Origin: Bdellovibrionales bacterium | GTDB taxonomy: Bacteria; Bdellovibrionota; Bdellovibrionia; Bdellovibrionales; UBA1609 | NCBI GenBank assembly: GCA_965261545.1 | Contig: CBDHDF010000011.1 | Span: 672,001-736,000 of the forward strand | DNA: 64,000 nucleotides | Direction: 5' to 3' | Shown: positions 47,698-63,870 of the stretch, one piece after another | Layout: every line of letters starts with the position of its first letter | Numbering within the stretch: position 1 is the stretch's first letter | Notes under the pieces: model-generated | What the model was told of the DNA's origin: nothing | Database searches by the model: none | The model's input: only the letters and a program-made list of their open reading frames with translations | Position numbers and translations under genes: made by a program

Positions 47698-48976
47698 TGA
47701 GGTGGACCCCAATGTCAGACTGAAAAACTTGATTTTTAAGCTACACCACAGCGCACAAAGAAGCCCCGTGTTAATGTGTTAAATCCACCTCTCCCATATG
47801 CACCTGATAAGGGGTGCAATCCTGAAGAGACTGGTGTGGCCTTTTATTATTATAAAAATTAAAATACGTTTTAAAACCTTTGTTGGCTTGAACCATTGAT
47901 TTGTCTTGATAGCCTTTCAAGTAAACCTCTTCGTACTTAACAGACCGCCAAAGCCGCTCGATCATAATGTTGTCTAAACACCTGCCTTTGCCGTCCATAC
48001 TGATCGAGATTCCATGATTTTTCAATAATTTTGTGAAAACCTCAGAAGTGAATTGGCACCCTTGATCAGTATTGACGATATCAGGGCAACCAAATGTTTC
48101 TATGGCTTCCTCAAAGACTTCTAAACAAAAAGTTGTCTCAAGGCTATTAGAAAGTCTCCAAGACAGAACAAATCGGCTAAACCAATCTATCACAGCTACC
48201 AAGTAAGCAAAGCCACCAGACAACCTTATAAAAGTAATATCAGTAGCCCACACTTGGTTGGGGGAGCAGATATTAAGCCCCTTAAGTAGGTAGGGATAAA
48301 CCTTATGCTGATGGTTTCGCTGACTGGTGTTTGGACCTGGGAAGATAGCGAAAAGACACATCTTTTCCATGAGCCGCTGAATCCTCTTGCGGTTGACCCC
48401 ATGGCCATTAAGTCTTAAGTGAGCTGCCATTTTACGGCTCCCATAAAAAGGGGTCTCCAAGTACTGTTTGTCAATTAAACTCATCAGTTTTAAGTTGTAG
48501 GCACTCTCAGGTATGGGCTTGTAGTACAAGGCTCCCTTAGAGAGTCCTAGCAACTCACATTGGCGAGTGACACAAATATTTGGATGTTTCCAATTGATAG
48601 CGGCTTTTTTCTCAGGCATTGAAGCTCTCAGATTTTTTTTTAACCAATCATTTTCAACCTTTAACTGCCCTATTTGCCGATACAATTCATCAATGGTTTT
48701 TCTTTGTTCTTCTACCTCGTTGTTGTCCTTTTTTTTGCTCGCTAAGGCCTTAGGAATGGCTTCAATAGCTTGCTTCTTCCAATCTTGGATTTGGATGCGG
48801 TGAACTCCATGCTTGGAGGCCAACTCTGCCATTGTGTCAGTCTCACGAATGGCGTCAAGTGCGACTCTGGCCTTAAATTGTGCGCTGTGTTTCTTTCTCA
48901 TTATCCCCTCCTATGAGGGGCTTTTTACCCGCTGCGGTGTAACTTAGCAACCAGTCTGTTTTTGGGGTCCACTATA
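47698..48976 (-). mobile_element. IS3-family element, intact (1279 bp)
   Basis: IRs TGAGGTGGACCCC / GGGGTCCACTATA; 3-bp TSD CAT. Confidence 0.95.
47771..48901 (-). CDS. IS3-family transposase, OrfA and OrfB in one frame
   Basis: HTH, leucine zipper and DDE core in a single 376-aa ORF. Confidence 0.93.
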
Positions 48977-50254
48977 CATCGCTTAGAGGCCATTTTTATC
49001 GCTAAATATACAACTTTTAAAGCCGACCGATCACTGGGAAATATCTTACGATTTCTGATCGCCTTGCGGATCACGCTATTTAACGACTCTATGGCATTTG
49101 TGGTATAAAAAATCTTTCTGATTTCATCCGGATAATCGAAAATAGTGATGAGATTGTCCCAATTCCTACGCCAAGACTTTTCAATATTAGGATACTTTGA
49201 AGACCACTTGGTACAAAATTCCTCAAGGGCCTTTTCAGCTTCTGTCAGAGTCGTAGAGCCATAAATGGACTTGAGGTCTTGGGCGACAGCTTTCATATCC
49301 TTGGAAGGAACATAGCGAAGGGAATTGCGGACCATATGGACAATGCACAGTTGCACTTTAGACTTGGGAAAAGCCGCTGAAATGGCTTGAGGAAAACCTG
49401 TAAGACCATCTACAGAAAATATAAATACATCTTTCAACCCTCGATTTTGCAGCTCAGTCAAAACACTCAACCAAAACTTTGAACCCTCATTTTCAGAAAT
49501 CCATAGGCCCAACAAGTCTTTCTGACCCTCCTCTGTAATACCAAGAGCTAGGTAAATCGCCTTATTAATAACTCTCTTGTCTTGATGGACCTTCACCACG
49601 ATACAGTCCAAAAATACGATAGGGTAAGTGCTATCCAAGGGGCGGTTCTGCCAAGCCGTAACTTCATCAATAACAGCATCCGTCACGTTGGCTATCACTG
49701 AGTGGGATATCTCTGCACCATGGTAGAGGTCTTTGATAGCTCCTTGAATATCCCTGGTCGTCATTCCCCTCGCATAGAGGGTCAGGATACTGTCTTCAAA
49801 GCCCTCAAGACGAGTCTTACCCTTGGGAATGACTTGAGGTTCAAAGGAGGCACTTCGGTCACGGGGGACCTGAAGCTCCACCTCGCCTTTCTCTCCCTTT
49901 ATGGTCTTTCTACTGTAACCATTGCGAGTGTTGGATTTGCGGGTCTCAGACTTCTCATGCCTCTCATAACCTAGGTGATCGTCCATTTCCGCATTAAGGG
50001 CCGTCTCTAAAACAACCTTCATCAGTTGACCCGTTATGTCGGATAAATCCTTTTGGGTCTTGACGTTCTTCGCTAGTTCCTTGCCTATTGTCTTGATATC
50101 CATTCTGCCTTCTCCTTTCAGGATGATAGTTCATCCTAATATGATTCGGCAGTTACACAAAATAGTTTACAGGCTCACTTCAGAGGGAAAAGAAAACGGT
50201 ATGGGGTGTGGCTGGAGTATGACAGATGGCGGTTTGGATCAGGGTGGATAACAT

Positions 50255-53299: not shown

Positions 53300-53713
53300 G
53301 TGACGCGAACTTGTCATTTCGTTCGCTCCTTTGTAAATTTAAAATTTTGAAGTCTCCAATGCTCCTTTAAAAATAAAGTCACACACTTTACTTGCTAAAA
53401 CAACATTTTTCTTAGGATAAATTCAACCTTCTTAAACGGTAAATCGAAAAAGATGGTCACCCAAAGTCTCGTTCAAACATACATGCCATATGCAAAAAAA
53501 ATAGTCTTGAGCCTCCGAGTTCCCCAAGAGAACTTCAAGCATTTAAATGTGACTAAAGTACAGAAATCGCTTAGGAACTTGGTTGCCCTCACACAATTTA
53601 GATGTAGACAGCCGATCAAGATGCTTAGCACTCTTTTCCCAGTCCTCAATTATCGTGGCCAGCCGCTCCGCGTCTGTCACTCTAATTGCCGCTTCGCTAG
53701 ACGAATGGCATTG
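53300..53713 (+). pseudogene. IS4-family relic with right IR
   Basis: TGACGCGAACTTGTCATTT resembles the IS4 type A leader; NFKH..CRQ C-terminal-like peptide; ends AGACGAATGGCATTG (also seen at about 31059-31073). Confidence 0.55.
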
Positions 53714-53855
53714 ATCTAAAGGGGATTTACGTCCTGAAACATACCTAGATCGGCGGCACTTCCATAGGTGGGAGTGTGGCATTTTTGAGCAGAAACTAGA
53801 CAATAGCCTATTCATAAAATATATAAATTTCCGATATATAAATTTGTGTCGTAAC

Positions 53856-53961
53856 ACTCATGGGGGCGCCTTGCTTCCCCAGCCACGCCCATGAATGTTG
53901 TGTATTAAAATAGGATTTATTAATAAATTCAGGATTTTAGACGAAAAACATTCATAGTAAC
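53856..53961 (+). repeat. Hairpin cassette A (putative non-autonomous IS110-associated unit)
   Basis: Hairpin aacactcatggg...cccatgaatgtt; ends TTCATAGTAAC, identical to the IS110 right end. Confidence 0.7.
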
Positions 53962-54037
53962 ATTCATGGGGGCGCCTTGCTTCCCCACCCACGCCCATGA
54001 ATCTTATCTAGGCCCCCACTTCTTTGCACGAAGCAAC
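53962..54037 (+). repeat. Hairpin cassette L
   Basis: Hairpin attcatggg...cccatgaat; ends CGAAGCAAC; second copy at about 30459-30534 on the minus strand. Confidence 0.75.
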
Positions 54038-54155
54038 TCGGTGGACAGCTTCGCTGGTCTATATAATTGGCCTCTTTTAGTTACTCTGGACTTTTGATGG
54101 TATTTTTGTCATGTATGATTCCGATACAATAAAGGATAAAGCAATAACATTATTG

Positions 54156-54342
54156 GAAGGTGATAAGATGAGTGGCCGTTGAATAGATTGGTAATTTTAA
54201 TTCCGTGAAGTAACATGGTCTTGAGCTTTGGATCGAACCCACGCATGTACCTGCACTCTGAGTGTATGGACGTATAGTAAGTTGACCTATTTTCGCTTTA
54301 GAATTTATGGCAAAATCCCAAGGCTCTAGTTTTATCACCTTC
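54156..54342 (+). ncRNA. Putative IS110 bridge/guide RNA, copy 1
   Basis: Closed by an 11-bp inverted repeat GAAGGTGATAA / TTATCACCTTC followed by a T-run; internal stems; segments GAAGTAAC and ATAGTAA match the junctions. Confidence 0.6.
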
Positions 54343-54370
54343 TTTTTTTCTAACAGAAAGGAGGAGTCAT

Positions 54371-55571
54371 GTGGATATTATTTATAGTTCTGTTTGTGGA
54401 ATAGATGTTCATCAACATATGTTGATGTGTACGATTGTCAAAGTGGAAGACGGTAAGAAGAAGTTTTTCACAAAAGAGTTCAAGAATTTTCCAAAAAATT
54501 TTCCTAGAATGCGCTCTTGGATGAAGCCACATAAGGTTGAGAGAGTTCTTTTTGAGAGCACAGGGATTTATTGGAATTCTTTATACGATGATTTGACAGA
54601 AAAAGGTTATGAAGTAGATGTTATCAATGCCTTTCATGTCAAAAATATTACTGGTAAAAAAACTGACGTGTTGGATAGCCAGTGGATTGCAGAGCTTGGT
54701 GCTTGTGGTCTTCTAAGAGCTAGCTTCATTCCTCCACGTGAGATTCGTTCTATTAGACTTTTGGCTCGTTATCGTACAAAAACGATCCGCCAAATATCTT
54801 CGGAACAAAATCGTATGTATAAGGTTCTTGAATATTCAGGCATTCGTTTAACCTATGCAATGTCTAAAGCTGACTGCGTATCTGGTATGGCCATGATTCG
54901 TGCCATAGCTAATGGAGAGAGATCAGTTTCTAAATTGATGTCTCTTGCCAGAGGGTCTTTACGTCAAAAGACCGAAGAATTTTCTTACGCCCTGTCGGGA
55001 AAGATGACGGAAGAAAATCGTTTTGTTCTTCAACGCATTCTTGATCGAATAGATTTTTTGAAAAAAGAATGCTCTCAAATTGAAGAAGAACTTTTCATTC
55101 GTATGAAACCCTATGAAAGGCAGTGGCATCTACTCCAGACTATACCTGGAATTGACGAATTAAGTGCAGCGCTTTTGATTGCAGAAATAGGAGGCAATGT
55201 GAAGTCTTTTAAAAATAAAGGAAATTTTTGCTCCTGGATGGGGATTTGCCCATCCAATAATGAGAGCGCAGGAAAAAAAGTCTTCACGAACGAGGAAAGC
55301 GAACACATATGTGAAATCGTTGGTATGTGAGATGGCCAATAGTGCTATTAAGACGAATTCACAATTCAAAGGCAAATACCAATCACTTGTTATAAGGCGT
55401 GGGCACAAGAGATCAGTGATTGCCGTTGGTCACAAAATGATGGGAGTTGTTTATTCAGTCATAAGTAATGACACCCCCTACAAAGACCCTGGAATTGACT
55501 ATGAAAAGCTCATGGTGAAAAAAAATGCACCAAGGTGGATTAGAGCGTTAAAAAAGTATGATTTCATGTAA
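54371..55571 (+). pseudogene. IS110 recombinase, frameshifted (A7 instead of A9 at about 55273)
   Basis: Otherwise matches 55998-57200. Confidence 0.9.
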
Positions 55572-55782
55572 TGTAGGATGATTTAAAAACTCGGACATTT
55601 GAAAAAATTCGAAGAACGGATAGTGGATTCGTGCGTCCAAACTACCCCGGAGATTCATAGTAACTCGGTGGACAGCTTCGCTGGTCTATATAATTGGCCT
55701 CTTTTAGTTACTCTGGACTTTTGATGGTATTTTTGTCATGTATGATTCCGATACAATAAAGGATAAAGCAATAACATTATTG

Positions 55783-55969
55783 GAAGGTGATAAGATGAGT
55801 GGCCGTTGAATAGATTGGTAATTTTAATTCCGTGAAGTAACATGGTCTTGAGCTTTGGATCGAACCCACGCATGTACCTGCACTCTGAGTGTATGGACGT
55901 ATAGTAAGTTGACCTATTTTCGCTTTAGAATTTATGGCAAAATCCCAAGGCTCTAGTTTTATCACCTTC
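55783..55969 (+). ncRNA. Putative IS110 bridge/guide RNA, copy 2
   Basis: Same sequence as 54156-54342. Confidence 0.6.
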
Positions 55970-55997
55970 TTTTTTTCTAACAGAAAGGAGGAGTCAT

Positions 55998-57200
55998 GTG
56001 GATATTATTTATAGTTCTGTTTGTGGAATAGATGTTCATCAACATATGTTGATGTGTACGATTGTCAAAGTGGAAGACGGTAAGAAGAAGTTTTTCACAA
56101 AAGAGTTCAAGAATTTTCCAAAAAATTTTCCTAGAATGCGCTCTTGGATGAAGCCACATAAGGTTGAGAGAGTTCTTTTTGAGAGCACAGGGATTTATTG
56201 GAATTCTTTATACGATGATTTGACAGAAAAAGGTTATGAAGTAGATGTTATCAATGCCTTTCATGTCAAAAATATTACTGGTAAAAAAACTGACGTGTTG
56301 GATAGCCAGTGGATTGCAGAGCTTGGTGCTTGTGGTCTTCTAAGAGCTAGCTTCATTCCTCCACGTGAGATTCGTTCTATTAGACTTTTGGCTCGTTATC
56401 GTACAAAAACGATCCGCCAAATATCTTCGGAACAAAATCGTATGTATAAGGTTCTTGAATATTCAGGCATTCGTTTAACCTATGCAATGTCTAAAGCTGA
56501 CTGCGTATCTGGTATGGCCATGATTCGTGCCATAGCTAATGGAGAGAGATCAGTTTCTAAATTGATGTCTCTTGCCAGAGGGTCTTTACGTCAAAAGACC
56601 GAAGAATTTTCTTACGCCCTGTCGGGAAAGATGACGGAAGAAAATCGTTTTGTTCTTCAACGCATTCTTGATCGAATAGATTTTTTGAAAAAAGAATGCT
56701 CTCAAATTGAAGAAGAACTTTTCATTCGTATGAAACCCTATGAAAGGCAGTGGCATCTACTCCAGACTATACCTGGAATTGACGAATTAAGTGCAGCGCT
56801 TTTGATTGCAGAAATAGGAGGCAATGTGAAGTCTTTTAAAAATAAAGGAAATTTTTGCTCCTGGATGGGGATTTGCCCATCCAATAATGAGAGCGCAGGA
56901 AAAAAAAAGTCTTCACGAACGAGGAAAGCGAACACATATGTGAAATCGTTGGTATGTGAGATGGCCAATAGTGCTATTAAGACGAATTCACAATTCAAAG
57001 GCAAATACCAATCACTTGTTATAAGGCGTGGGCACAAGAGATCAGTGATTGCCGTTGGTCACAAAATGATGGGAGTTGTTTATTCAGTCATAAGTAATGA
57101 CACCCCCTACAAAGACCCTGGAATTGACTATGAAAAGCTCATGGTGAAAAAAAATGCACCAAGGTGGATTAGAGCGTTAAAAAAGTATGATTTCATGTAA
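55998..57200 (+). CDS. IS110-family DEDD (RuvC-like) recombinase/transposase
   Basis: GIDVH, FESTGIYW, KTDVLDS (DEDD); LQTIPGID, GICPSNNESAG (catalytic Ser loop); GGAGG RBS. Confidence 0.96.
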   Translation: MDIIYSSVCGIDVHQHMLMCTIVKVEDGKKKFFTKEFKNFPKNFPRMRSWMKPHKVERVLFESTGIYWNSLYDDLTEKGYEVDVINAFHVKNITGKKTDVLDSQWIAELGACGLLRASFIPPREIRSIRLLARYRTKTIRQISSEQNRMYKVLEYSGIRLTYAMSKADCVSGMAMIRAIANGERSVSKLMSLARGSLRQKTEEFSYALSGKMTEENRFVLQRILDRIDFLKKECSQIEEELFIRMKPYERQWHLLQTIPGIDELSAALLIAEIGGNVKSFKNKGNFCSWMGICPSNNESAGKKKSSRTRKANTYVKSLVCEMANSAIKTNSQFKGKYQSLVIRRGHKRSVIAVGHKMMGVVYSVISNDTPYKDPGIDYEKLMVKKNAPRWIRALKKYDFM

Positions 57201-57405
57201 TGTAGGATGATTTAAAAACTCGGACATTTGAAAAAATTCGAAGAACGGATAGTGGATTCGTGCGTCCAAACTACCCCGGAGATTCATAGTAACTACTCAA
57301 TCTTTCCACTTTGTGTGAGGAAGAATAGAGGGTTGCGAATCCAAAGCCTCCCCTATGAAGCTAATGGGGGGTGAACATTTACAAAAAAATTTAGACATAT
57401 ATTGA

Positions 57406-60204
57406 TTGGTTATAAATTTGGAATCTAATGAGATAATTAATAATTTTAAAAAAGATTTCGAATATTTAATGGGGTTTTCTCCATTTGAGTGGCAAAGAGA
57501 TCTTTTTTTTCAGTATTTTATTGGTCAAAACAATAACAATATTCCAAATATTCCTTCATTTATTGATATTCCAACCGGTCTGGGTAAGACTTCAGTGATG
57601 ACGATTTGGTATTTGGCTTTGAAATATGGATATATTGTACCTCGGCGCTTGATTTATGTCGTCGATAGGAGATCTGTAGTGGACCAAGCTACGTCAATTG
57701 CCAATGAGATTAGAATTAAAGCTCAAGATGAATTAGAAGAGCATAAACTTCTTGTAAGCACATTGCGTGGTCAGTATATAGATAATCGAGATTGGCTGGC
57801 TAACCCTGCGAATCCCTCCATTATTGTTGGTACTGTTGATATGATTGGCTCAAGAATTCTATTTTCAGGCTATGGTGTGTCTAATAAAATGAGATCCTAT
57901 CATGCCGGACTTATGGGAGTAGACTCACTCGTTGTTCTTGATGAAGCGCATTTGGTTCCTCCCTTCGAAAAAATGCTTCAAACAATTGTAAATAATAATA
58001 TGTTTGAACCTTCTAAGAAAGAGATTTGCAACTTTATGCCACCATTTAAATTGCTATCACTATCAGCCACAGGGTATGAGAGCAATGAAAATAAAGAAGG
58101 AGTATTTCAGTTAACCTCGAAGCACTGCAAAGATGAGTTGGTCAATAAGCGTCTAAACGCATGTAAAAGTCTTATTATCGAAAAAACTAATGATAAGGAA
58201 GATGTTGTAAGTGCGATAACTAAATATGCTTGGGATCTTAGTCAGGAAATGTGTGATTCTCGATCCACTTGTCGCATACTTATTTATTGTAATCTCCGAA
58301 AGAATGCCATAACAATTAAAGATAAGATTCACAAAAAAATTAATAACGAAAAAAAAATTCATTTTGTGTCTGAGCTTTTGGTTGGTAGTCGTCGAGTGCT
58401 TGAACGGCAAGAATTATCTTCTTGGTTGAGTCGTCATGGTTTCTTAAAAGATAACCAAGAATCAATGAAGAAGATAGATATTCAAAGAAATGAAGTTGAG
58501 CACCAGCCACAAGTTGCTTTTTTAATTGCGACATCAGCAGGTGAAGTAGGTATTGATCTTGATGCAGATCACATGATCTGCGATTTAGTTGAGTGGGAGC
58601 GTATGGTGCAGCGTTTTGGTCGAGTTAATCGCCGAGGTGAGAGTAAATCCTGTATTAAAGTCATTGTTAACTCAAAAAATGGCGATCTAAGATTATTAAA
58701 TCCATTGAGATTCTTTACGAAGAAATCTCAAATTTATGAAACAAAGAATGAAGAATGGAATCACCAAGAGTTATCCATATCTTTCAACGAGAAGGGAGTA
58801 AGCCCCAGAAACATATTGAAACTTAAAGAGTATGCAAAAAAAGATGAAAATATTCAGAATATGATTAAAGATGCTACGACAAAGTCACCGTTATGCCCAT
58901 ATTTGACTCGATCACTTGTCGATGCTTGGTCGATGACTTCACTACATGAACATACGGGTCGTCCCAATGATATTCAGCCATGGTTGCGTGGATGGGAAGA
59001 AAAATCAAATGCGCAAACTACGATCATCTGGCGTAAATATTTACCGATATGCAGAGGCGAACAAGAAGCGACTAAGAAAGATATTGAATCCTTCTTTGAA
59101 GCAGCGCCACCACATATCAGTGAGAAAATTGAAACCAAGACAATTGAGGTTGTTAATTGGTTTATAGATCAATTTAATAATAATAAATGTGAGTATGGCA
59201 CAAATAATAAAAATATTATTGGGTATATTTTTTATTCTTCCATGAAATTATATGAAAAAATATATACAAATGATATCAGAAAAGAATATAAAAAAGATTT
59301 AATAAAAAAACTCTCAGGAAATATATTAATTTTAAATAGTTCTTATGGAGGTCTTTCTGAGAATGGTATGCTTGATGCAACGCCTAATATACCTCTACAG
59401 CGTGTCATTGATGGTGATGATGAGTGGATGCCTAATTATGATGGCCCACCGACTATTCGATTTCGTATTCAATCTAGTATAGGGGCAAAGAAGATAGGTC
59501 TATTCAAAAAGACCTTATCTGATAATAGTAAATGGATAGAAGGCCATCGCTTTAATGTTGAGATAAATCAAGATGCTGAAGTCACACACTGGCTTGCTAT
59601 TGAAAAATGGTGTAGTGATTCGCAGACTGAAGAGGATCGGTCTACAGGATTTCCTCAATTATTAGAAGAACATCATGTTTGGACTGAAAAAAAAGCAAGA
59701 GTCTTGGCGAAGGCTCTTCATTTACCAGAAATTTATACCAAAATGCTTATGATTGCTGCCAAACTTCACGATGAAGGTAAGCGTTACAGGTATTGGCAGA
59801 GAGCATTCAATGCTCCATCTGATGGTGAGATTTATGCTAAAACAAAGGGACCTATAAGTTTAAAGCGATTGAATGGTTATCGTCATGAATTTGGTTCATT
59901 GCCATATGCAGAAGAAAATGAGGAGTTAAAGAGCTTGCCAACTGAACTTCAAGACCTTGCTCTACACTTAATTGCTGCACATCATGGTTGGGGGCGACCT
60001 AATATATCCACTTCAGGCAATGATAGTCCTCCTTCTGTTCTTGAGGATCGTGCATTAAATGTAGCGTTGCGATTTGCACGGTTACAGAAGCATTGGGGAC
60101 CTTGGGGTCTTGCTTGGTGGGAGTCCTTGTTGCGATCAGCAGATCAGCAGGCATCTCGTGAAAATGATGAGCGCAGCGTTGATTCTATAGGGGAGGTCTC
60201 GTGA
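57406..60204 (+). CDS. cas3: Type I-G (I-U) Cas3 helicase with C-terminal HD nuclease
   Basis: IPTGLGKT, PRRLIYVVDRR, DEAH, LSAT, EVGIDLD, QRFGRVNR; C-terminal HDEGK, YRHEFGS, AAHHG, ESLLRSAD. Confidence 0.95.
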   Translation: MVINLESNEIINNFKKDFEYLMGFSPFEWQRDLFFQYFIGQNNNNIPNIPSFIDIPTGLGKTSVMTIWYLALKYGYIVPRRLIYVVDRRSVVDQATSIANEIRIKAQDELEEHKLLVSTLRGQYIDNRDWLANPANPSIIVGTVDMIGSRILFSGYGVSNKMRSYHAGLMGVDSLVVLDEAHLVPPFEKMLQTIVNNNMFEPSKKEICNFMPPFKLLSLSATGYESNENKEGVFQLTSKHCKDELVNKRLNACKSLIIEKTNDKEDVVSAITKYAWDLSQEMCDSRSTCRILIYCNLRKNAITIKDKIHKKINNEKKIHFVSELLVGSRRVLERQELSSWLSRHGFLKDNQESMKKIDIQRNEVEHQPQVAFLIATSAGEVGIDLDADHMICDLVEWERMVQRFGRVNRRGESKSCIKVIVNSKNGDLRLLNPLRFFTKKSQIYETKNEEWNHQELSISFNEKGVSPRNILKLKEYAKKDENIQNMIKDATTKSPLCPYLTRSLVDAWSMTSLHEHTGRPNDIQPWLRGWEEKSNAQTTIIWRKYLPICRGEQEATKKDIESFFEAAPPHISEKIETKTIEVVNWFIDQFNNNKCEYGTNNKNIIGYIFYSSMKLYEKIYTNDIRKEYKKDLIKKLSGNILILNSSYGGLSENGMLDATPNIPLQRVIDGDDEWMPNYDGPPTIRFRIQSSIGAKKIGLFKKTLSDNSKWIEGHRFNVEINQDAEVTHWLAIEKWCSDSQTEEDRSTGFPQLLEEHHVWTEKKARVLAKALHLPEIYTKMLMIAAKLHDEGKRYRYWQRAFNAPSDGEIYAKTKGPISLKRLNGYRHEFGSLPYAEENEELKSLPTELQDLALHLIAAHHGWGRPNISTSGNDSPPSVLEDRALNVALRFARLQKHWGPWGLAWWESLLRSADQQASRENDERSVDSIGEVS

Positions 60205-61085
60205 ATCAGTTTTCAATTTCTGTCAATCTCTTTAACCCAGGGCAGGTTTTTGCTTGCCTTGGATTTCTAGAAGCTGCAGAGGTGCTAGTGGGCCATGTTC
60301 AAGGAGGTTTCATTTGGAATCAAGGAACCAAAGCAAAATTCTATTTAAATGTAGAGAGTGATAACAATCCTTTTAAAATCATACTGGAATTCTTAGTGAG
60401 GGCCAAGCTAAAGAGATGGGCCCCGATTGGCTATTCATATAAATCATCTAATAAAGCATCTGAATCAAAAGAAGATAAGAAAAATGACCTAGAGTTGCGC
60501 AAATTTTCTCCATTTTATTTTGATCATAAAGTTAAATCAAAGGAAATGATCTTGCCTATTTACTTCATTGGTGAGGACAATACATGTATTGATCTTAGTC
60601 ATTGGGCTGATGAATCTAGTCGTTACAATTTTAAGCTCTATGCAGGAAATCGCTCTGCATATAAAATTGCCAGAGATATGATTGAGAGCATTAAAGATCT
60701 TTGGAAAGAAAATCAGACTAATCTAATCAAGGACCCTTTTATGACTACTCATATGGGAGGAAATTTCAATTTTGATTCCCGAGGAAATTGGACTTCCATA
60801 AATGTGGGGTATTCACTAAACGATCAAAAACATCAAATTGTTTCTTCTCCAGTCGTTGAGCTTCTTGGAGCTTTGGGTTTGGAAAATGCTCGACCTAGTA
60901 AAGATGAGTGTGAAGATAGGAAAATTCATTATGCGGTTTGGAAGATTCCTCTTTTTCCAATACTAGCGCGTGCTGCACTTTGTGGAACTATTCCAAATAT
61001 TCCTATGCAAAAATTTTATTTTAAGTTAGAAAAATCTGGAAAGAATAAGATTGTTACTTTTGCACAAAAGGAGGATTCACTATGA
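60201..61085 (+). CDS. csb3: Type I-G large-subunit-type protein Csb3/Cas8g
   Basis: VNLFNPGQVFACLGFLEAA, FKLYAGNRS, FNFDSRG.W...VGYS, PVVELLGALGLE; overlaps the cas3 stop. Confidence 0.8.
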   Translation: MNQFSISVNLFNPGQVFACLGFLEAAEVLVGHVQGGFIWNQGTKAKFYLNVESDNNPFKIILEFLVRAKLKRWAPIGYSYKSSNKASESKEDKKNDLELRKFSPFYFDHKVKSKEMILPIYFIGEDNTCIDLSHWADESSRYNFKLYAGNRSAYKIARDMIESIKDLWKENQTNLIKDPFMTTHMGGNFNFDSRGNWTSINVGYSLNDQKHQIVSSPVVELLGALGLENARPSKDECEDRKIHYAVWKIPLFPILARAALCGTIPNIPMQKFYFKLEKSGKNKIVTFAQKEDSL

Positions 61086-62320
61086 ATGATTTGAAGGAAG
61101 AAGAGGTAAATGTAAAAAAAACTGAAGAAATGATTGAAAATTGGATTGATGATGAGAGTGATATTGTTGCATTACATTTGAAACAAGAACTATTACCTGT
61201 TGGAGGAAAAAAAGGTGAGAAGAATGTTATTTTCCCTCCTACTTATGCTGATATTGGTTATAATATTGATACACTGAGGGATGGGACAAAGGTTGCTCTT
61301 GTTGACAGTGTTGGTTCTCAGGCCAATCGCATGGAGCGAATTTTCAAAAAAAAATCCTACTCAAAACTTGTTCCTCAAATTGAAATAAATTTAGTAAATG
61401 ATGAAAAAAGAGAAGAAAAAGAAAAAAATGTTAATGAAAATAATAGTATTCGTAAAATATCTCTACTAGATTTAGCACATAGGGGTGCGGATGCTACTGT
61501 TTATTCATGTCCAGGTCTTGCGCAAGAAATGACAAAGGCTTTTCATGAATTGAAAATAAATGGTAATGCGTGGAAATTATTTAAATTATCTCCAACATCT
61601 TTGGTTTTTGGATTTTGGGATTCCCGTGGTGGTTCAGGTGAAAAATCTCCTCGTTTAGTTCGGTCGATTATTCGTGCATGGGATGTTGAATCCATCCATA
61701 GTGCAGCGCAATTTAATTCAATATGGAAATATCTCAGTGAAAATAATAAGAATGAACTTAAGAAATCAGGAAATAATGACAAGAGGTCTGCTGTAGGTCT
61801 TGCTGATGTTCCTTCGGTATTCCGGGAAAATAAACTTTCTAAAACACTTGATGATAGAATTTTTAATCTTGAGACAAGAGTTCTTGGAGGTATCCTAGTC
61901 AATGGAATCATTGAAAGAAATATCACTGTCAACTTGGTAGCTCTACGCAATATTTGTGGTGGCAATTCAGATAAAACTAAATCTATTCAATCTTATCTCT
62001 TAGCACTCTCCTTAATTGCAGCAACATATGAAATTGATTTATTCCTTCGTGAGGGTTGCCACCTTCGTTATACTCATGATGATTGTTGGGAGCAAATTCC
62101 TCGGAGAGGCGAAGGTAAGAAAGTTCAATTATTATTAAAGGATATATCTGAGTATGCTCAGAAGAAGGCTAGATCTTTCTATGAAAAAGGTGTAAATTGG
62201 ATTGGCCCTAAGCAGCTGATTTACAACTTTGATTTGGCTGAGGCCAAAAAACTGTCTAAGAAAGAAGTACAAAAGGACAAGAGTAAGGAAAATAAGAAAG
62301 ATACGAAGGGTGAGACTTAG
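61082..62320 (+). CDS. csb1: Type I-G Cas7 (Csb1)
   Basis: IFPPTYA, VDSVGSQANRME, HRGADA, PTSLVFGFWDS, LFLREGCHL. Confidence 0.92.
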   Translation: MNDLKEEEVNVKKTEEMIENWIDDESDIVALHLKQELLPVGGKKGEKNVIFPPTYADIGYNIDTLRDGTKVALVDSVGSQANRMERIFKKKSYSKLVPQIEINLVNDEKREEKEKNVNENNSIRKISLLDLAHRGADATVYSCPGLAQEMTKAFHELKINGNAWKLFKLSPTSLVFGFWDSRGGSGEKSPRLVRSIIRAWDVESIHSAAQFNSIWKYLSENNKNELKKSGNNDKRSAVGLADVPSVFRENKLSKTLDDRIFNLETRVLGGILVNGIIERNITVNLVALRNICGGNSDKTKSIQSYLLALSLIAATYEIDLFLREGCHLRYTHDDCWEQIPRRGEGKKVQLLLKDISEYAQKKARSFYEKGVNWIGPKQLIYNFDLAEAKKLSKKEVQKDKSKENKKDTKGET

Positions 62321-62322
62321 AT

Positions 62323-63870
62323 ATGAAGTATTCACTTCTGTTTTCAATATATTTCCATGAAGGTCGCTATCACGGTGAATGCGATGGAAGAAGCGAGTGG
62401 CCACCATCACCATTTCGTTTTTTTCAAGCTTTGGTGGCGGCTACGGCAAGAGGTGTTAAGATTTCATCCCAGTATAGGTATGCACTTGAGTGGCTTCAGG
62501 ATCTTGATCCACCTACCGTTCTTGCTCAAGTTGCTTGTGAGGGTCAGAGTGTCAAAAATTATGTTCCGAACAACGATCTTGATAAATATGGAGGTGATTT
62601 GAGAAAAATTAATAAAATTCGAACTCCAAAGAGTATTCATCCACATATTTTTGATGAAAAAATTCCATTGATATTTATTTGGACATTTCATGATACGAGA
62701 GAAAATAAAGATAAAGCAAAAATTATTTGTCATGTTGCGAAAAAAATATATCAACTTGGTCGAGGTGTGGATATGGCTTGGGCTCAATCAAAGGTATTGG
62801 ACTCAAACACAATGAAAACATATATTGAAGGGTATAGAGGTACTGTATATCAACCTAGTCAAGAGGGTTTTCTGGGCACTGGAACACCGTTATTTTGCCC
62901 AACCAAAGGTTCTCTTGAAAGCCTCGAAGAACGATACAATTCTAATCGTATTACAACATGTATGGATAAGAATAGCAAGGTTGATTATATTTTTTCTCAA
63001 CAACCAAAACCTTATTTCACCAAGGTTATATATAAAGCACCATCTCACAATTTTTTGTTTGAGTTGCGTACAGTGACTTCTGATGAATCTTTTGTGAAAT
63101 GGCAGTCAATTAAAACTTTTGATCTTGTAAAGAAAATCCGGAGTATAGCAGCGAGTCGCTTGAAAAAAAGTTTACCCAAAGAAACTGAAATTATTGATCG
63201 TGTGCTTATAGGTTGTGGTGCTACCGAAGAAGATAAAGAATGTCGAGTGCGTATCTTACCCCTTCCTTCTATTGGCCATTTTCATGCGGATATATTTATT
63301 CGACGTGTGCTGATTGAGGTGCCTTCTAGGTGTCTGTTGAAGGCAGATGATTTAGCTTGGGCATTCTCTGGCATTCAAGATATTGATTGTAAAACTGGGG
63401 AAATTTTTTGGAATCTTGTGTGCACAAACGATCGAAGGATTCTCAAGCACTATGGCGTTGAGAATAGTAAAAAAGATAATTTTCATATTTGGCGCACTAT
63501 AACTCCAGTGGTACTTCCATCTATGAGGGTGAAACGTTTAGGAGGGTCTCATGAAATAGTTGGGGCTAGGGAGGGGATGTCTAAGACCAGTAGAAGGAAC
63601 AATCGCATAGAAGGTGAAGTAGAGTTGGCTTGTACTGTGAAGCAAGCACTTCGTCATGCAGGAGTATTTACACCTGTAAAGTCTATTCTTATTCAAAGGG
63701 AGCCGTTTGATTTGAATAATGTAAAATCTAAAGACTTTATTGTTCCTAAAAGATTCAAAATGAATGAATTACGTCATTTGGAGATTAATTTTAATCATGC
63801 ATTATCGGGACCTCTTGTTCTTGGTGATGGGCGTTATTTTGGTTTAGGTTTGATGGCTCCTAAAACTTAA
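62323..63870 (+). CDS. csb2: Type I-G Cas5/Cas6 fusion (Csb2)
   Basis: GRYHG..EWPPSPFRFFQALVA, YVPNND, LGRGVD, LPSIGH, WRTITPVVL, GPLVLGDGRYFGLGLM (Cas6 G-loop). Confidence 0.93.
   Translation: MKYSLLFSIYFHEGRYHGECDGRSEWPPSPFRFFQALVAATARGVKISSQYRYALEWLQDLDPPTVLAQVACEGQSVKNYVPNNDLDKYGGDLRKINKIRTPKSIHPHIFDEKIPLIFIWTFHDTRENKDKAKIICHVAKKIYQLGRGVDMAWAQSKVLDSNTMKTYIEGYRGTVYQPSQEGFLGTGTPLFCPTKGSLESLEERYNSNRITTCMDKNSKVDYIFSQQPKPYFTKVIYKAPSHNFLFELRTVTSDESFVKWQSIKTFDLVKKIRSIAASRLKKSLPKETEIIDRVLIGCGATEEDKECRVRILPLPSIGHFHADIFIRRVLIEVPSRCLLKADDLAWAFSGIQDIDCKTGEIFWNLVCTNDRRILKHYGVENSKKDNFHIWRTITPVVLPSMRVKRLGGSHEIVGAREGMSKTSRRNNRIEGEVELACTVKQALRHAGVFTPVKSILIQREPFDLNNVKSKDFIVPKRFKMNELRHLEINFNHALSGPLVLGDGRYFGLGLMAPKT

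Follow-up and report, generated by a model that had tools for sequence, protein, structure and literature searches.

The window analyzed here, the whole stretch of 64,000 nucleotides of Bdellovibrionales DNA, contains two copies of an IS110 element. Read from left to right, the order is a target arm, a 106-bp mini-element, copy 1, copy 2 minus its first 76 bp, and the target arm CTACTCA. The two copies had been described beforehand as a tandem insertion; with the first 76 bp of copy 2 missing, the tandem is not a clean one. The features of the locus are as follows.

53851 to 53854, plus strand: GT-AA, left arm plus core of the site first inserted into; the junction motif is the same as at the other left junctions.
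53855 to 53960, plus strand: 106-bp non-autonomous mini-element with both IS110-element ends; its right end adjoins the left end of copy 1, and seven related units occur in the genome.
53959 to 53960, plus strand: core AA at the true left end of copy 1 (TT on the guide-read strand), a donor-type junction.
53961 to 55663, plus strand: IS110 element copy 1, 1703 bp as assembled and 1705 bp with an intact A9 run.
53962 to 54004, plus strand: left-end hairpin, the distal arm of which, ATGAATCT (53997-54004), forms an 8-bp inverted repeat with AGATTCAT near the other end, on the right.
54030 to 54037, plus strand: internal half-site GAAGC-AA-C, which matches the 3' target guide; truncated copy 2 breaks here, and two right-end-to-CTCGG junctions occur in the genome.
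54156 to 54342, plus strand: predicted bridge RNA, closed by an outer stem.
54371 to 55571, plus strand: IS110 recombinase gene of copy 1, with a frameshift in an A-run near 55272 as assembled.
55662 to 55663, plus strand: core AA between the right end of copy 1 and the internal half-site with which copy 2 starts.
55664 to 57292, plus strand: IS110 element copy 2, without its first 76 bp; its copy of the RNA lies at 55783-55969.
55998 to 57200, plus strand: intact 400-aa IS110 recombinase of copy 2, in which D12, E62, D99, D102 and S299 align with the IS621 catalytic residues.
57293 to 57299, plus strand: CTACTCA, the original target's right arm, in which six of seven positions are complementary to the 5' target guide.

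The ends of the element were located with a probe of 30 nt from position 53962, run against the whole genome, which returned 50 left-end matches. GAAGCAAC lies 76 bp inside the element in 36 of these, and the flanks ahead of the matches vary. The true left end of copy 1 falls after the AA at 53959-53960, 76 bp to the left of the boundary drawn in the preliminary description, and GAAGCAAC (54030-54037) is therefore internal to the element and not a target flank. The match of GAAGTAAC (54207-54214) to GAAGCAAC had been reported at the correct positions; it is the reading of GAAGCAAC as an insertion flank that fails. The non-coding end upstream of the recombinase gene, formerly given as 333 bp, is 410 bp long (53961-54370), and the right end is about 90 bp. 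The sub-terminal inverted repeat is 8 bp long and stands 36 bp and 3 bp from the cores; the matching pair of the mini-element differs from it (9 bp, 53891-53899 and 53947-53955). Judging from junctions at off-target sites, the crossover appears to be confined to the AA.

The 65 bp between the hairpin and the RNA (54040-54104) are about 95% identical to part of another repeated element of about 50 copies, in which that part lies downstream of an opposite-strand transposase, presumably IS256-like; this interval looks like captured DNA. A type I-G CRISPR-Cas operon (cas3g, cas8g2, csb1/cas7g and csb2; 57406-63870) starts about 110 bp past the right junction of the element. Two more transposase-like genes, of 376 and 392 aa on the minus strand, lie at 47771-50103 in the window, and we take them to be IS3-like and IS256-like, respectively.

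The recombinase carries the domains PF01548 and PF02371 and scores 245 bits against NF033542 (cutoff 140), which places it in the IS110 family with a DEDD RuvC-like domain and a Tnp domain bearing the catalytic serine. The residues used for the alignment with IS621 were those named in passages of PMC11208158. The protein is distantly related to that of IS621 (E 2.7e-15) and, by pairwise comparison only, about 22-24% identical to remote IS110-family hits on plasmids. The frame of copy 1 is broken in an A-run (55266-55272) that follows the catalytic serine codon and is A7 in 18, A8 in 3 and A9 (intact) in 14 genome copies; three homologs (P0005, P0006 and P0015) break at the same position. Two short-read contigs (X1 and X2) have two more A at the copy 1 run, i.e., A9. 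The differences in run length are probably long-read homopolymer error, and slippage may occur at the run. A regulatory role for the copy 1 frameshift was considered and set aside, as the short-read contigs have the intact run, though rare variants drop out of contigs.

Dozens of near-identical copies and fragments of the element are present in the genome. A right-end probe gave 35 right junctions, comprising 16 with CTATTCA, one with CTACTCA (that of the window), one with CTATTTG, eight into a left end and nine elsewhere; the modal target is GT-AA-CTATTCA (16/35). Among the 34 distinct real left flanks, GT is the only common feature ahead of the core (G in 29, T in 31), and the core is AA in 32 of the 34. 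Such site-specific insertion around a short core, in an element that lacks terminal inverted repeats, is in keeping with the IS110 family. The genome contains 36 GTAACTATTCA sites, 16 of them after a right end and 20 empty. Most are the ends of a 1715-bp element with terminal repeats of at least 13 bp and 8-bp direct repeats, the protein of which matches PF03050 (IS66). On sequence grounds, insertion is preferentially into the terminal repeat of an IS66 element. The left junction in the window (53957-53972) is itself like an IS66 terminal repeat (GTAAC, ATTCA and a run of G), and an IS66 transposase might therefore take it as an end.

Six mini-elements were seen elsewhere in the genome besides that at 53855-53960; the left-end hairpin is present in all seven and a right-end-like motif in six. 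Several begin with CC, not CA, after the core, and two lie within a GTAACTGCTCAGGGGG-type end; a relative with a different handshake may have given rise to them. The left-end hairpin also occurs alone, in short units of about 50 bp, at C2:618582, C6:99965, C10:577782 and C2:345448-383708. Some of these are perfect palindromes with the core on both sides, and seven stand in a repeated context on C2.

The predicted RNA was examined by folding and by comparison with homologs. The 187-nt block first proposed holds at its coordinates, with a perfect 11-bp inverted repeat (54156-54166 and 54332-54342) followed by seven T. The T-run, although present after the block, was not scored as a terminator and is absent in 19 aligned homologs. 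The block folds with a minimum free energy (MFE) of -52.3 kcal/mol (z -2.79), and none of 200 shuffles was as good. Of the two inner stems noted earlier, GCACTC/GAGTGT is found in both the MFE structure and the homolog consensus, and ACATG/CATGT in neither. The MFE structure of the single sequence leaves the target loop unclosed, and holding the four loop strands open costs 4.5 kcal/mol.

Homolog loci fetched by alignment query numbered 159 (79 + 80), all 32-48% identical; the closest homologs (65-80% identical) enter without flanking DNA, and the loci used are the 32-48% set. A single-protein query for related loci confirmed none of 12 candidate stretches, and a search of related genomes at E 1e-60 found the element in none of 60. 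The upstream DNA of 28 hand-chosen closer loci was aligned with that of this element (L033, which did not align, was dropped), and a profile from this alignment matched upstream of 53 of the 159 loci. The consensus comprised 11 pairs with 28 rows and 27 pairs with 20 hand-picked rows, of which 9 and 20, respectively, had changed on both sides. In the 27-pair structure, 90.3% of cells are paired, compared with 32-45% for slid partners, and it beat 500 of 500 shuffles in five measures, a result that leans in its favour because the structure was tested on its own source alignment. Two domains are predicted within it.

54174 to 54220, plus strand: target-binding loop with an inner hairpin, closed by a stem of 54174-54178 with 54216-54220; helices 1 and 2 have 97.5% and 92.5% of cells paired.
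54223 to 54326, plus strand: donor-binding domain, a multi-branch loop closed by 54223-54231 with 54318-54326; helices 3-7.

The outer stem is outside the consensus; when the 20 rows are folded singly, each joins its two ends by 12-19 pairs (without a shuffled control). A conserved two-loop structure is thus located in the non-coding end upstream of the gene. The order put forward earlier, a 5' target loop followed by a 3' donor loop as in a bridge RNA, is supported. The plus strand folds better than the minus strand (z -2.79 versus -2.11), and a U-G pair found in 20 of 20 rows would be a mismatch in the minus-strand equivalent. An RNA from the minus strand was rejected for its weaker fold and because its cores would fall at the 5' ends of the guides. 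An Rfam scan of the block gave four weak matches, none near the gathering score, and a scan of plus-strand positions 53700-54500 for sigma-70-like promoters gave none.

In IS621, as set out in parts of PMC11208160, a loop consists of 7 + 2 guide bases, a hairpin, and then 5 guide, 2 core and 2 handshake bases. The following segments were assigned on this template.

54180 to 54186, plus strand: 5' target guide TGAATAG (equivalent of the IS621 LTG), complementary to the right flank CTATTCA at 7/7 positions.
54207 to 54215, plus strand: 3' target guide GAAGT, core AA and handshake CA (equivalent of the IS621 RTG/HSG), in the pattern RRRRRCCHH.
54240 to 54249, plus strand: where the 5' donor guide would be expected; it matches the left end in part, without covariation.
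54274 to 54282, plus strand: 3' donor guide ATAGT, core AA and GT (equivalent of the IS621 RDG), identical to the right end of the element.

The 3' target strand follows the pattern of five guide, two core and two handshake bases, and the two segments first noticed are therefore right-guide equivalents in an RNA that reads the strand opposite the gene. They bind the arms left of the core in the direction of the gene, and only in that frame does their earlier label of left guides hold; in structure they form the 3' strands of their loops and equal the right guides of IS621, with handshake positions. The right-hand guides had been left unplaced; the partner in the target loop was found upstream (54180-54186), not downstream. 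AA or AG on the gene strand corresponds to a TT or CT core on the opposite strand, AG being the complement of the canonical CT.

The assignments were tested with 52 homolog loci and one single-copy locus of this element, which together gave 43 distinct RNAs. Ends were taken from DNA motifs and loop strands from RNA motifs, and the true pairs were compared with 20000 shuffled pairs; as the elements are kin and not independent samples, these shuffle counts make the significance look higher than it is. Each test omitted the rows in which no end could be parsed. L002, the flank of which is its own right end, was excluded from the tests of target-loop guides against the left side and from the 3' target guide test, and two apparent mis-parses (the donor guide of L001 and the left end of L026) were counted as misses.

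The 3' target guide agreed with the left flank at 3.63 of 5 positions, against 1.88 when shuffled (n=30, z 10.3, 0/20000), and the target-loop handshake agreed with the first two bases of the left end at 1.90 of 2, against 0.92 (n=30, 0/20000), being exact in 28 of 30. The 3' donor guide agreed with the right end at 3.85 of 4, against 2.49 (n=27, z 10.8, 0/20000). With one row per distinct guide (n=25 for the 3' target guide and n=11 for the 3' donor guide), the covariation was kept (0/20000). The core of the guide equalled that of the end in 30/30 and 27/27 rows, AG cases included, an agreement that is partly built in, the ends of single-copy homologs having been called by motifs containing the core. 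The covariation of the 5' target guide with the right flank is weaker, at 3.38 of 7 against 2.84 shuffled (n=26, 66/20000, z 3.0), and without this element 377 of 20000 shuffles were as good. Within this genome, TGAATAG occurs once in the upstream region and matches 16 of 35 right junctions at 7/7 and one at 6/7, the chance of that 7-mer at three registers being 2.5e-4; nine of the 35 match at 4/7 or less. Its core pairing is unclean, with AT where TT is expected, and only the GT of GAAGT matches real flanks in this genome.

Both segments singled out in the preliminary description are thus guides that track the left flank and the right end among 43 related RNAs, ATAGTAA (54274-54280) being the right end of the element as first stated. 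The two target-loop guides covary with the two target arms, as in a bridge RNA. In a relative from sequencing run X6, both target guides and the handshake are altered, at 54187-54188, 54207-54208 and 54215 at least, among other places in the target loop. Eight homologs (L007-L009, L016, L017, L019, L022 and L043) are multi-copy, with U-rich 5' target guides and varied right flanks, and the specificity of the lineage therefore ranges from strict to loose.

The map drawn in the preliminary description kept the IS621 order in the frame of the gene. It took GAAGTAAC and ATAGTAA for 5' left guides and read GAAGCAAC as the target flank, so that right guides would be expected further downstream. Both segments are indeed identical to the arms left of the core in the direction of the gene, and the internal GAAGC-AA-C has been used twice as a breakpoint. 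However, with GAAGCAAC inside the element in 36 of the 50 left-end matches its boundary is refuted, both segments are 3' strands of their loops, and the IS621-order pairings in the frame of the gene were all flat (z -0.9, 0.5, 1.1, 1.3 and 0.7), which leaves this map very improbable. The block might instead be a regulatory 5' leader or a terminator of the recombinase gene, its short matches being protein-bound DNA repeats or chance: it ends 17 nt before the ribosome-binding site with seven T after it, and a given 7-mer has a probability of about 0.01-0.015 in 187 nt. As a loop segment changes with host DNA outside the element in 30 RNAs, which neither chance nor a fixed protein site can explain, we give this reading hardly any credence.

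The 5' donor guide showed no covariation with the left end in three scorings (2.94 of 7 against 2.86 shuffled, n=32, z 0.7), in a test limited in power because this donor arm varies little, and the donor-loop handshake gave no signal in the homolog guide test (z 1.1). The lack of a 5' donor signal would suit a mode like that of seekRNAs, in which the main agent is a short processed RNA with only the target loop (about 54170-54225), the protein recognises the donor mainly through contacts with the sub-terminal repeats, and the donor loop helps with one arm. The end motifs, which are conserved, and an inverted repeat that changes in step from element to mini-element point the same way, as does the predominance of short target-only RNAs for ISEc11, ISEc21 and CazIS110-1 described in passages of PMC11187229 and 10.1101/2025.10.25.684509. 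Against this, over 11 distinct guides the 3' donor guide and the right end change closely together, and conservation extends to the donor domain and the outer stem, so that the long RNA is under selection; such a mode is therefore unlikely here.

On this evidence, the 187-nt block very probably encodes the bridge RNA of an IS110 element with many copies, an RNA that reads the strand opposite the gene. The RNA would be transcribed on the gene strand and fold into a target loop and a multi-branch donor loop. Read opposite the gene, the target would be TGAATAG-TT-AC and the donor ATGAATG-TT-ACTAT. Pairing would join the 5' target guide to the 7-bp arm, the 3' target guide to the core and the remaining arm, and the 3' donor guide to the right end of the element, after which the CA handshake may capture the donor strand once it has been exchanged. 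With a right end of AGT-AA, each insertion would rebuild a usable target and the IS66 repeat and so permit head-to-tail stacking. Transcription, binding, the order of strand cleavage and the route to the tandem and deleted copies we infer by analogy with IS621.

With AGT-AA at the right end, both target guides would again find their match at the right junction and the IS66 repeat would be restored; eight head-to-tail junctions in the genome fit such rebuilding. The AGTAA shared by the two segments had been offered as the cause of tandem insertion, and it plausibly makes the right junction a fresh target. Ends of array members, however, lie at good targets in 8 of 11 cases and single copies in 6 of 11, with no useful difference; since arrays are not clearly commoner there, target rebuilding is not shown to be the cause of the tandems. 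Recombination with a circle is another possible source, and tandem copies of other IS110 elements are reported in parts of 10.1101/2025.10.25.684509 and 10.64898/2026.08.14.744561.

At 55662-55664 a right end meets the internal half-site; the contigs of X1 and X2 speak neither for nor against this junction. A second one of the kind, on C2, stems from a mini-element the left flank of which is not GAAGC. None of the 50 left ends follows GAAGCAAC. The simplest route to the odd junction would be excision of 76 bp between the donor-type junction and the half-site, and half-match reactions are reported for IS621 in passages of 10.64898/2026.08.31.748434. The match in the preliminary description is therefore not without meaning, though what it marks is an off-target site and not a flank. 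Elsewhere (C10:1020989 / C10:1009967), a copy was seen inside the donor-loop guide of another copy (ATAGT-AA, equal to window 54274-54280), a donor half-match event.

Bridge RNAs were predicted in 85.7% of IS110 elements (Durrant et al., in part of PMC11208160), and a 2026 preprint presents, in the portion available, 86 models over 32,190 loci (10.64898/2026.10.21.760802). The present lineage may lie within those published sets. Bridge RNAs are expected in most IS110 elements, so the RNA itself is no surprise and it is the guide map that matters. A motif search of the Durrant supplements for a named ISfinder relative gave, among the matches listed, ISArsp3 and two unnamed rows, without group or guide data. 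A search of the running text of openly available papers, including passages of PMC13626964, 10.1101/2025.10.25.684509 and 10.64898/2026.08.14.744561, returned no text on the IS1111 order in an upstream RNA or on IS66 ends as a target, which is weak evidence of absence.

The system resembles IS621, as described in parts of PMC11208160 and PMC11208158, in having an RNA of about 180 nt in a long left end upstream of a DEDD/Ser recombinase, with the target loop before the donor loop. In both, a 5' guide of some 7 nt precedes an inner hairpin, after which comes a 5-nt 3' guide with core and 2-nt handshake, and the second core base is T on the strand that is read. In contrast to IS621, the 5' guide here is directed at the right flank and the 3' guides at the left flank and the right end; the core is TT, or CT in some homologs, on the opposite strand, whereas that of IS621 is CT on the gene strand. 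The donor guides lie in a multi-branch loop, an outer stem closes the RNA, no covarying 5' donor guide was found, and the 400-aa protein is only distantly related.

The long upstream non-coding end is that of the IS110 group, but the order in which the bottom-strand match comes first is reversed here. The complement of the top strand comes first in IS1111 elements with downstream RNAs, ISEc21 having the reverse order (Siddiquee et al., passages of PMC11187229), and multi-loop donor guides are described for IS1111 in part of Durrant et al. (PMC11208160). The predicted guide order is thus of the IS1111 type and the position of the RNA of the upstream IS110 type. Guide order and multi-loop donor guides recall ISEc11, ISKpn4 and ISPa11, with the RNA here upstream, not downstream, of the gene. 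The 8-bp repeats at 36 bp and 3 bp differ from those given for IS1111 in the sources consulted (11-13 bp, 7 bp and 3 bp from the ends) and fall outside that definition.

By the published rule, an upstream RNA has the IS621/ISEc21 order and a downstream RNA the reverse. The lineage breaks this link, which bears on the origin of the IS110 and IS1111 groups; in practice, where guides are sought for new recombinases, an IS621-style design would here put each guide on the wrong arm. We tentatively propose, as a possibility we rate at somewhat below even, a widespread uncharacterised lineage of bridge recombinases of about 400 aa that is a living IS110/IS1111 intermediate, having an upstream RNA in the IS1111 order, one donor arm guided by RNA and the other read via the left-end hairpin and sub-terminal repeat. 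This member would be a parasite of IS66 ends that stacks on itself and rebuilds its own target as well as the host repeat. For a single RNA, its genome brings together on-target, half-match and tandem junctions as a natural data set.

A target in the sequence of another transposon is known from IS4321/IS5075 (Tn21 terminal repeats) and, from passages of PMC11187229, from ISEc21 (codons of an IS3 transposase). Unlike in those cases, the target here is an IS66 terminal repeat that the right end of the element rebuilds. Such an insertion contrasts with the statement, in part of a preprint (10.64898/2026.08.14.744561), that IS110 insertion does not rebuild the target.
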